A stretch of DNA of 7,351 nucleotides, taken from IMG/VR virus record IMGVR_UViG_2693429524_000006. One strand, given 5' to 3'. The notes under the pieces were generated by a model. That model saw only the letters and a list, made by a program, of their open reading frames with translations. It had not been told where the DNA came from and searched no databases. Position numbers and translations under genes: made by a program. Source of the DNA: a virus (taxonomy: Duplodnaviria > Heunggongvirae > Uroviricota > Caudoviricetes). Shown here one piece after another: positions 1,869 through 2,024 of this stretch (positions are counted from its first letter, which is position 1; each line of letters opens with the position of its first letter).

Positions 1869-1912
1869 TTGATTTTAATATTTCTTCGCGTTTATCATTA
1901 CCTTTGCGGTAA
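1869..1912 (+). promoter_or_regulatory. leader promoter of antirepressor B (TTGATT-N18-TATCAT) with TTACC-N5-GGTAA repeat abutting the -10
   Basis: -35 at 1869-1874, -10 at 1893-1898, inverted repeat 1898-1912; mirrored on the minus strand at 4980-5023. Confidence 0.5.
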
Positions 1913-2004
1913 ATTTACATCGCACTCCTCTTGTGCCATAGTAATCGGGCACTGGCAAAATCCAGTGCCGGGATTGGCGTCCCGGATTACTAAAAGGCGC
2001 ATTC

Positions 2005-2024
2005 ACCGCGCAAGCGGTTTTTTT
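2005..2024 (+). terminator. intrinsic terminator or attenuator inside the antirepressor B leader
   Basis: ACCGC-GCAA-GCGGT hairpin (GNRA loop) followed by 7 T; copy C has a different stem sequence (CCACG/CGTGG) with the same structure. Confidence 0.6.

Follow-up and report, generated by a model that had tools for sequence, protein, structure and literature searches.

An IsrK-family leader RNA, probably part of a C4-type antisense switch, ahead of two antirepressor-type genes in an Escherichia coli prophage

In the stretch of viral DNA analysed here (the window; 7,351 nucleotides, IMG/VR record IMGVR_UViG_2693429524_000006) a short segment between promoter-like sequences and an intrinsic terminator precedes an antirepressor-type gene. 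An initial annotation had proposed that transcription from a TTGATT-N18-TATCAT promoter to this terminator yields an RNA of ~120 nt, which carries target-sense copies of two pairing elements and acts either as a decoy for the downstream antisense domain or as an attenuator. This raises the question of which RNA is made from the segment and in what way it could act on the antirepressor gene.

Setting and family membership of the leader element

By sequence comparison the window belongs to a prophage of E. coli that is of the phiV10/TL-2011b (epsilon15-like) type: 67% of it aligns with phage TL-2011b at 99.2% identity, and E. coli chromosomes cover up to 79%. Two antirepressor-type genes are encoded in inverted orientation, one of the Bro-N type (plus strand) and one of the AntA type (minus strand), and ~330 nt of related leader lie 5' of each. 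At 1854-2024 and 4868-5038 lie the arms of the corresponding inverted repeat, with 88% complementarity. Quite probably, positions 1949-2024 and the twin at 4943-4867 on the minus strand represent the leader sRNA of a C4-type antisense switch which controls a prophage antirepressor gene. The features of both copies are as follows.

1869-1898, plus strand: distal promoter-like site TTGATT-N18-TATCAT, 9 of 12 matches, predicted start ~1905
1898-1912: operator-like palindrome TTACC-N5-GGTAA between the distal -10 and the proximal -35, recognized by site count
1914-1942, plus strand: putative proximal promoter TTTACA-N17-TGcCATAGT (extended -10), by alignment; predicted start 1949, the +1 of IsrK
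1949-2024, plus strand: IsrK-family leader sRNA, copy 1 (hairpin 1, hairpin 2, linker, terminator); RF01394, 77.9 bits, and folding
1949-1968, plus strand: hairpin 1, GCACTGG-CAAAAT-CCAGTGC, with the conserved CAAAAU loop; Rfam, folding and covariation
1969-1984, plus strand: hairpin 2 with a1 in its loop; folding
1974-1980, plus strand: a1, UUGGCGU; equal to a2, complementary to a'
1990-1997, plus strand: b1, CTAAAAGG (RNA CUAAAAGG), in the single-stranded linker; equal to b2, complementary to b'
1997-2002, plus strand: segment X, GCGCAU, with possible partners at 2008-2011 (antiterminator), 2025-2030 (clamp) or 1931-1936 (leader); pairing tests
2005-2024, plus strand: intrinsic terminator ACCGC-GCAA-GCGGU plus U7 (stem 2005-2018), -7.5 kcal/mol
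2025-2030, plus strand: AUGCGU, 3' strand of a helix enclosing the terminator in the read-through RNA; cognate-versus-swapped test and minimum free energy (MFE) fold
2049-2134, plus strand: C4-family antisense RNA, copy 1 (b' 2092-2099, a' 2106-2112); RF01695, 77.7 bits
2138-2173, plus strand: target region of copy 1 (a2 2138-2144; b2 with Shine-Dalgarno sequence 2166-2173); exact matches
2182-2877, plus strand: antirepressor-type gene of copy 1, Bro-N; PF02498, E = 2e-21
4950-5023, minus strand: putative promoters of copy 2 (distal TTGATT 5023-5018 and TATCAT 4999-4994; proximal TTTACA 4978-4973 and TGcCATAGT 4958-4950; operator-like palindrome 4980-4994)
4867-4943, minus strand: IsrK-family leader sRNA, copy 2; RF01394, 67.7 bits
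4918-4912 and 4902-4895, minus strand: pairing sites a1 (UUGGUCU) and b1 (CUAAGUGG) of copy 2; exact matches
4889-4873, minus strand: terminator of copy 2, ACCACG-CCAGA-CGTGGT, a different stem of the same shape; folding
4757-4841, minus strand: C4-family antisense RNA, copy 2 (b' 4800-4793, a' 4785-4779); RF01695, 61.2 bits
4051-4753, minus strand: targets of copy 2 (a2 4753-4747, b2 4725-4718) and AntA gene (4707-4051); PF08346, E = 4e-26

Family membership was assessed against the Rfam gathering scores (isrK RF01394, 50 bits; C4 RF01695, 45; c4-a1b1 RF03163, 46.7). The isrK matches extend over model positions 1-77 of 77 in both copies and are far beyond chance. The threshold of c4-a1b1, which is passed by P1, P7 and a Pseudomonas phage, was not reached in the window (45.1 bits for copy 1 and 37.6 bits for copy 2), and this sub-threshold match covers hairpins 1 and 2, as does the isrK match. 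The isrK and c4-a1b1 families of Rfam describe overlapping parts of one element. In P4 this element goes by the name of seqA plus t1, in P1 and P7 by that of a1/b1, and in Gifsy-1 by that of IsrK.

The layout given by Rfam for isrK, with a CAAAAU-loop hairpin, a second hairpin and a Rho-independent terminator, was recovered together with covariation in hairpin 1 and in the terminator; six of the seven base pairs with compensatory changes lie in the stem of hairpin 1. Hairpin 1 had been annotated with exact coordinates, and hairpin 2 is present as proposed; its true span is 1969-1984 instead of 1968-1985, as C1968 belongs to hairpin 1. In an alignment of 26 leaders (MAFFT and RNAalifold) both hairpins were recovered and the terminator was not, because variable loop lengths shift its arms out of register. 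Terminators were instead located by landmark, and their pairing was tested with cognate-versus-swapped and shuffle controls.

In both copies isrK, C4 and the antirepressor gene follow each other on the same strand, which is the arrangement of the Gifsy-1-type module. The tandem of isrK and C4 occurs also in Stx phages, SfV, APSE, Yersinia phages, N15 and P4, and in P1, P7 and the Pseudomonas phage c4-a1b1 stands where the isrK match would be, in an otherwise equal layout. In the P1/P7 system an icd gene separates c4 from ant, which is governed by translational coupling and Rho polarity. No icd gene lies between c4 and ant in the window locus, where ant begins 48 nt past the end of C4; the sole ORF inside C4 comprises 35 codons, with its AUG at +105 and its end 21 nt 5' of the ant ATG.

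With the leader-to-C4 segment 1905-2185 as megablast query, 941 of 5,426 complete E. coli genomes gave a match; in 454 genomes it extended over 80% or more of the query length. Among the matches listed, the RefSeq annotation at this locus consists of the Bro-N gene alone. Relatives are present in Stx-converting phages. The element of the window, itself unstudied, unmistakably belongs to a known family; it is ordinary in E. coli and widespread there.

Pairing elements a and b

The pairing sites of the leader recur at the antirepressor gene. In copy 1, a1 (TTGGCGT in the DNA) recurs exactly as a2 (2138-2144) and has its reverse complement in a' (2106-2112), and b1 stands in the same relation to b2 (2166-2173) and b' (2092-2099). 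The a' and b' sites of C4 are complementary to the upstream a1/b1 as well as to the downstream a2/b2, with b2 over the ribosome-binding site, as in P1/P7; b2 of copy 1 holds the Shine-Dalgarno sequence, 8 nt 5' of the ant ATG (2182). Both the b1 site in the leader RNA (1990-1997) and the same-sense copies of the targets next to the ribosome-binding site, as proposed in the initial annotation, were confirmed as exact identities.

In copy 2 all six sites are changed in concert (UUGGUCU/AGACCAA and CUAAGUGG/CCACUUAG). Cognate duplexes reach -9.0 to -12.6 kcal/mol versus -3.4 to -4.9 kcal/mol for the IsrK-to-C4 cross pairings, in which a1/b1 of one copy meet a'/b' of the other; therefore the two modules of the window should be largely orthogonal to each other. 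One cross pairing between a target and a C4 is stronger: that of the copy 2 b2 with the copy 1 b' amounts to -9.4 kcal/mol.

The comparison covers 27 members, drawn from Stx phages, SfV, APSE, Yersinia phages, Gifsy-1, P1, P7 and the Pseudomonas phage as well as from four contigs of IMG/VR and one Desulfopila genome. Across them the longest exact match between a1 and its own downstream target is 9.4 nt on average (non-cognate: 5.3 nt), and that of b1 is 7.5 nt (non-cognate: 5.1 nt). A swap test of downstream-target windows against C4 windows was discarded, since the windows overlap the C4 stem, and exact-match tables were used instead. In the wider sequence collections, a scan of 596 Gb of genome contigs with the pattern CAAAATCNNNNNNCCGGGNTTGG was too loose, with nearly all of its 120 loci being chance matches and a single true member among them (Desulfopila, L077); the first viral-contig pattern returned eight loci, of which four were real.

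The three sites (leader, C4, target) covary between the copies of the window, in the 27 members and in 103 phiV10-like variants. These 103 variants are unique leaders from IMG/VR; all of them carry a1 again downstream, and 101 have its reverse complement in C4. The variants carry 14 (a,b) combinations, which implies, as judged from the sequences, that pairing specificities are shuffled by recombination. Because the a and b classes are shuffled combinatorially, they could serve to forecast which prophages can cross-talk.

When the +1 of Gifsy-1 is set at the base aligned to window position 1949, all 14 published positions that were checked fit, including C18, G28, G31, the AUG at 107, C159, C162, G173 and C175. 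G28 and G31 correspond to 1976 and 1979, while C162 and C159 fall in a' (2106-2112). The experimentally validated Gifsy-1 pairs G28-C162 and G31-C159 are a1-a' pairs, the leader of the window is complementary to the C4-like region at these positions, and the a1 and a' sequences of copy 1 are the same as in Gifsy-1. Cofolding of the whole IsrK and C4 molecules gains just 0 to -1.8 kcal/mol and is uninformative. Because of this small gain, and because in vitro binding in Gifsy-1 required prior denaturation (PMC4825925), a loop-loop kissing contact or Hfq is probably needed for the pairing of IsrK with C4.

Termination, start sites and mode of action

The terminator annotated at 2005-2024 was verified. 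Each of the 27 members has a terminator at this position (-5.4 to -11.5 kcal/mol), and the 13 distinct arm pairs among them all form a stem, so that the argument that differing but isostructural terminators speak for function holds. The position of this Rho-independent terminator, directly 3' of the seqA/a1b1-type element and before the C4-like gene, is that of t1 in P4 and Ta in N15. The P4 terminator t1, between PLE and cI, was reported by Briani et al. (2000) to need the CI RNA and seqA, also in vitro, and Ta of N15 was reported by Ravin et al. (1999) to need the processed CA RNA.

For the Gifsy-1 homologue the fate of both transcripts has been described (PMC4825925). IsrK ends at its own terminator, and a fraction of the transcripts reads through to give the isrK-orf45-anrP mRNA, which supports the attenuator proposed in the initial annotation. 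Pairing of the central part of IsrK with the 3' part of 'orf45' gives the read-through RNA a fold called 'structure A', which is inactive. The short IsrK pairs in trans with the downstream 'orf45'/STnc1160, which is a homologue of C4, and raises antirepressor translation more than 100-fold (PMC4825925). Supplied in trans, IsrK increased anrP translation 139-fold and read-through transcription 8-fold; the IsrK-G28A and IsrK-G31A variants lost this activity, and the G28A/C162U and G31A/C159U double mutants regained the inactive fold of the read-through RNA (PMC4825925). As Gifsy-1 IsrK targets its own read-through mRNA in trans and copy 1 has the same a1/a', the proposed decoy function likewise finds support. 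Hershko-Shalev et al. attributed activation to translation of the orf45 small ORF and translational coupling, not to titration of a processed C4 (PMC4825925). They also discussed a C4-type RNA promoting termination at the IsrK terminator; in a co-expression test in Gifsy-1 the simple model of C4 as a termination factor was unsupported (PMC4825925).

For the window we propose the following course of events. Transcription from a repressor-guarded promoter would first produce two hairpins and a linker, which show a1 and b1, and then the intrinsic terminator. By analogy with the homologues, most transcripts would stop there as an RNA of ~76 nt, and the remainder would read through into C4 and ant. 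As in P1, C4 would block ant translation by pairing of its a' and b' loops with a2 and b2 at the ribosome-binding site of ant, and the short leader RNA, like IsrK of Gifsy-1, would compete for these loops as a decoy, or anti-antisense, and relieve the block. C4 on the nascent a1/b1 may in addition favour termination, which would turn the terminator into a C4-responsive attenuator; in our model, four bases from the last G of b1 onwards can form an antiterminator with the terminator's 5' arm, and C4 at b1 would block this pairing. Taken together, these steps would form a feedback loop which holds free C4 near a set point and translates a burst of promoter activity into antirepressor synthesis. 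The circuit would be one of RNA only, with decoy, antisense RNA and target under one promoter, and would gate antirepressor synthesis and thereby prophage induction.

The predicted antiterminator pairs 1997-2000 with 2008-2011 in copy 1 and UGGCG with CGCCA in copy 2. An alternative hairpin of segment X with the 5' arm of the terminator can be drawn in 27 of 27 members with varying sequence, and in distant members it is stronger than the terminator. Compared with composition-preserving shuffles, its mean z is -2.4, with negative values in 24 of 24 distinct sequences; the partner swap gave p = 1e-4, where the phylogenetic relatedness of the members makes permutation p-values optimistic. The antiterminators of the window comprise only 4-5 bp, and each copy by itself is marginal, as 5.3% of shuffles fold as well. 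In the 76-nt form terminator and antiterminator are nearly isoenergetic (+1.4 kcal/mol in copy 1 and -1.8 kcal/mol in copy 2). Since the 5' arm of the antiterminator overlaps b1 by 1-3 nt in the members examined in detail, the model suggests that C4 at b1 blocks the antiterminator and thus promotes termination.

In addition, 6-7 nt before the terminator pair with 6-7 nt past the U-tract. This clamp is present in MFE folds of the read-through RNA, the only form in which it can arise, and it covaries (e.g., GCGACA/UGUCGU, GGCGAU/AUCGUC, GCACAU/AUGUGU and GGACAC/GUGUCC). Cognate pairs average -8.66 kcal/mol versus -5.94 kcal/mol for swapped ones, with p about 5e-5, again optimistic for related members. 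The covariation that we see in antiterminator and clamp goes beyond the literature accessible to this analysis. Were both real, they would offer a structural mechanism for the antisense-RNA-dependent termination described genetically in P4 and N15.

These observations bear on a narrower interpretation, according to which the element would work in cis only: C4 would bind the nascent a1/b1 and raise termination as an autoregulation of its own synthesis, and the short RNA would be an inert by-product. A terminator conserved with covariation in 27 of 27 members, an antiterminator which abuts b1, the small cofolding gain of IsrK and C4 and the reported dependence of P4 t1 on CI RNA and seqA would all agree with it. 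An inert short RNA is nevertheless difficult to reconcile with the 114- to 171-fold increase of anrP caused by Gifsy-1 IsrK in trans, the inactivity of IsrK-G28A and IsrK-G31A, and the allele-specific rescue in C18U/G173A (PMC4825925). Moreover, Rfam lists IsrK among the sRNAs that bind Hfq, and northern blots showed it as a short RNA (PMC4825925). We consider action in cis alone a possible but rather unlikely explanation; it and the decoy reading are not mutually exclusive.

The second point at issue is the 5' end of the acting RNA. The proximal promoter aligns with TTGACx-N17-TATAxT in all relatives, and its predicted start coincides with the Gifsy-1 start. From this conserved promoter and the Gifsy-1 numbering, the principal RNA most likely spans 1949-2024 (~76 nt). 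The distal TTGATT/TATCAT of the initial annotation does exist. The window shows no enrichment of sites with 9 of 12 promoter matches (8 sites versus 11.0 expected), and the lambdoid, P1, P4 and N15 relatives lack a distal promoter, as do all relatives outside the phiV10-like clade. Within this clade a promoter-like site with changed sequence is present in both copies, in EC.W1-9 (TTGAAA/TATTAT), in phiV10 (TTTGCA/TATATT) and in phiv142-3, and the distal promoter is probably real but specific to phiV10-like phages. The palindrome TTACC-N5-GGTAA occurs six times in the window versus 0.18 expected, and lies at the same place in copy 2 (4980-4994). By analogy with Op(c4) of P1, a prophage repressor probably binds here and shuts both promoters.

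In favour of the ~120-nt species starting near 1905 as the functional RNA, its fold is unusually good, with z values of -5.2 and -5.7 compared with -2.4 and -2.9 for the short form. Folding predicts that in an RNA from 1905 the leader 1931-1946 pairs with 1986-2001, over part of b1 and segment X, and that the balance favours the terminator by ~9.7 kcal/mol; for the RNA from 1949, terminator and antiterminator folds differ by less than 2 kcal/mol. Most of the 103 variants have a 5' leader complementary to b1 and X; across all of them this helix showed no compensatory double changes, only wobble-compatible changes and some mismatches. Pairing of part of b1 would also weaken a decoy function, and the proximal promoter is the universal one and matches the mapped +1 of IsrK. 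That the ~120-nt RNA is the functional species is thus unlikely, and of the original proposal a longer isoform stands as possible, whereas the main 5' end is placed at 1949.

The third possible partner of segment X, the 5' leader, exists in phiV10-like phages only and in distal-promoter transcripts only.

As a tentative and speculative extension of the model, segment X might act as a three-way switch, alternating between the 5' arm of the terminator, the sequence past the U-tract and the leader of distal-promoter transcripts, so that C4 at b1 and promoter choice would jointly set the ratio of decoy to C4 plus ant mRNA. Such a switch would be conserved from Desulfobacterota-associated and Pseudomonas phages to P1, P4, N15 and E. 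coli prophages. Antiterminator, clamp and promoter-dependent isoform are the only parts of the system that might be new.

It was also considered that a1/b1 act only within the read-through precursor, paired in cis with a'/b' as in 'structure A', and serve as a folding or processing chaperone until C4 is processed. In both copies the MFE structure of the read-through RNA contains a1-a' and b1-b' pairs in cis, and structure A has been demonstrated in Gifsy-1 (PMC4825925). Such a role would leave unexplained why an efficient U-tract terminator separates a1/b1 from C4 in 27 of 27 members, and why IsrK is active in trans, and we judge it improbable. A small protein encoded by the ORFs which overlap the element in both copies (1824-2099 on the plus strand and the twin 4856-5023 on the minus strand), a position noted in some phage records as 'similar to hypothetical protein', was rejected, as the copies differ in terminator length and therefore in reading frames and ends (91 aa versus 55 aa), the variation obeys RNA pairing rules at three separate sites and the covariance-model matches are full-length. 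Recognition of the element as a leader sRNA avoids mis-annotation as a hypothetical ORF.

Relation to known systems

IsrK and C4 were described as structural homologues of P4 seqA and CI RNA, with similar systems in P1, P7 and N15, by Barquist et al. (PMC3632133). The closest counterpart of the window is IsrK of Gifsy-1 (RF01394; Hershko-Shalev et al. 2016, PMC4825925), with which it has the three-hairpin layout and the promoter position in common. The a1/a' sequences of Gifsy-1 are identical to those of copy 1 (UUGGCGU/ACGCCAA), the terminator is likewise followed by a C4-like RNA (STnc1160/'orf45') and the antirepressor gene, and the AUG of the small ORF is at +107 compared with +105 in the window. 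The b element and the terminator stem differ, and so does the host phage, which is a phiV10/TL-2011b-type podovirus for the window and lambdoid for Gifsy-1. Unlike Gifsy-1, the window has no antQ upstream, and its small ORF of 35 codons ends 21 nt before the ant ATG. Beyond Gifsy-1, it possesses a probable additional distal promoter with an operator-like site, and two copies, predicted to be largely orthogonal, as an inverted pair.

The immI system of P1 and P7 (Citron and Schuster 1990; RF01695, RF03163) shares the a' and b' loops of C4, which act on a2 and b2 over a ribosome-binding site, the same-sense upstream a1/b1 in a two-hairpin motif and the operator-controlled promoter, the last being a probable feature in the window. 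Specificity is set by few bases, like the heteroimmunity of P1 versus P7. A terminator-like hairpin, an antiterminator and a flanking helix can be predicted in P1 and P7 too. In contrast to these phages, the window contains no icd, the ribosome-binding site under its b2 is that of the ant-type gene itself, and its copies score below the gathering score of c4-a1b1 but above that of isrK.

In the immunity region of P4 (Dehò, Ghisotti and co-workers) seqA matches isrK with 60.8 bits and CI matches C4. The order of promoter, a1/b1-like element, Rho-independent terminator, C4-like RNA and second target is that of the window. P4 differs in that the system provides primary immunity and controls replication genes rather than an antirepressor, that ~108 nt separate the two RNAs, and that the Rho-dependent timm adds a further layer. 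For N15 (Ravin et al. 1999) the isrK match lies at 28489-28414, the annotated Rho-independent terminator at 28413-28435 and the C4 match at 28388-28301. As in the window, the element is located 5' of an antirepressor operon, with the annotated terminator at the 3' end of IsrK; unlike the window, N15 has a three-ORF operon which ends in ant, control by the CB repressor and a single copy.

Finally, the proposed decoy resembles the sponge or anti-sRNA AgvB of the EHEC prophage Sp5, in which a short copy of a target site titrates a base-pairing regulator. In the window, unlike AgvB, mimic, regulator and target would derive from one transcription unit, and the mimic would be generated by premature termination.

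The leader RNA and its relatives

In transcripts initiated at the distal promoter the segment 1931-1946, which surrounds the proximal -10 element, is complementary to 1986-2001, comprising b1 (the leader copy of the b2 site at the ant ribosome-binding site) and the segment following it. This pairing would sequester both b1 and the following segment whenever transcription starts at the distal promoter. For the 120-nt leader RNA a fold z of -5.2 and a predicted preference for the terminator of about 9.7 kcal/mol were obtained.

The Rfam family isrK, which belongs to no clan, and the family c4-a1b1 of clan CL00128 cover overlapping parts of one element, as judged from the Rfam matches at 1936-2024 of the window and at three loci outside it (L147, L148, L149). 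In P1, P7 and a Pseudomonas phage c4-a1b1 alone passes; the terminator hairpin and U-tract are nonetheless there. In at least four other phiV10-like IMG/VR contigs (L172, L195, L196, L199) the leader is present twice, once on each strand, and the two-module layout of the window is thus recurrent among phiV10-like contigs. Two IMG/VR contigs with distant IsrK-C4 modules (L005, L007) contain several type II hammerhead ribozymes, which scored 52-69 bits vs a gathering score of 37:

L005: 472-790, 2899-2970
L007: 2177-2269, 3727-3920, 4771-4835

Palindromes and putative operators

TTACC-N5-GGTAA palindromes occur six times in the window, compared with 0.18 expected by chance, and every site lies either between the two IsrK promoters or upstream of an accessory cassette. 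These sites are probably operators for the prophage repressor. In both leader copies the distal -35 element shares bases with a palindrome of a second type, TCAACC-N6-GGTTGA, which covaries in phiV10, where the arms read CAAACC/GGTTTG.

172-186, 273-287, 1805-1819, 1898-1912, 2950-2964, 4980-4994: TTACC-N5-GGTAA sites
1855-1872, 5020-5037: TCAACC-N6-GGTTGA-type palindromes
5414-5443: perfect 30-bp palindrome with a related half-site (ATCAACCG / CGGTTGAT), within the truncated P22_AR_N ORF

Antirepressor-type genes and accessory elements

The three antirepressor-type genes have in common a C-terminal coding sequence of about 85 codons with 96-97% identity, of which the window holds just the last 32 codons in the case of the first gene. 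Since these near-identical C-termini are joined to differing N-terminal domains (Bro-N, AntA and a third one lost beyond the window edge), the encoded proteins look modular and recombinogenic.

1-98, 2622-2877, 4051-4306: common C-terminal coding segments
5142-5489: truncated P22_AR_N fragment
3025-3204: small ORF upstream of the YafO-like toxin gene
3152-3724: YafO-like toxin gene (Pfam E = 9e-6)
996-1057, 3940-4001: 62-nt direct repeat, 97% identical

The YafO-like gene and its upstream ORF may form a toxin-antitoxin pair between the two antirepressor modules. The direct repeat contains a terminator-like hairpin on the minus strand, and its second copy shares sequence with the end of a small ORF (3817-3978) that is signal-peptide-like.

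The small ORF inside the C4 RNA

2053-2160: 35-codon ORF inside the C4 RNA, AUG at IsrK +105

This ORF is the positional equivalent of 'orf45' (AUG at +107) of the Salmonella prophage Gifsy-1. It ends 21 nt upstream of the ant ATG, so that any translational coupling of the small ORF to ant would work differently here than in Gifsy-1.
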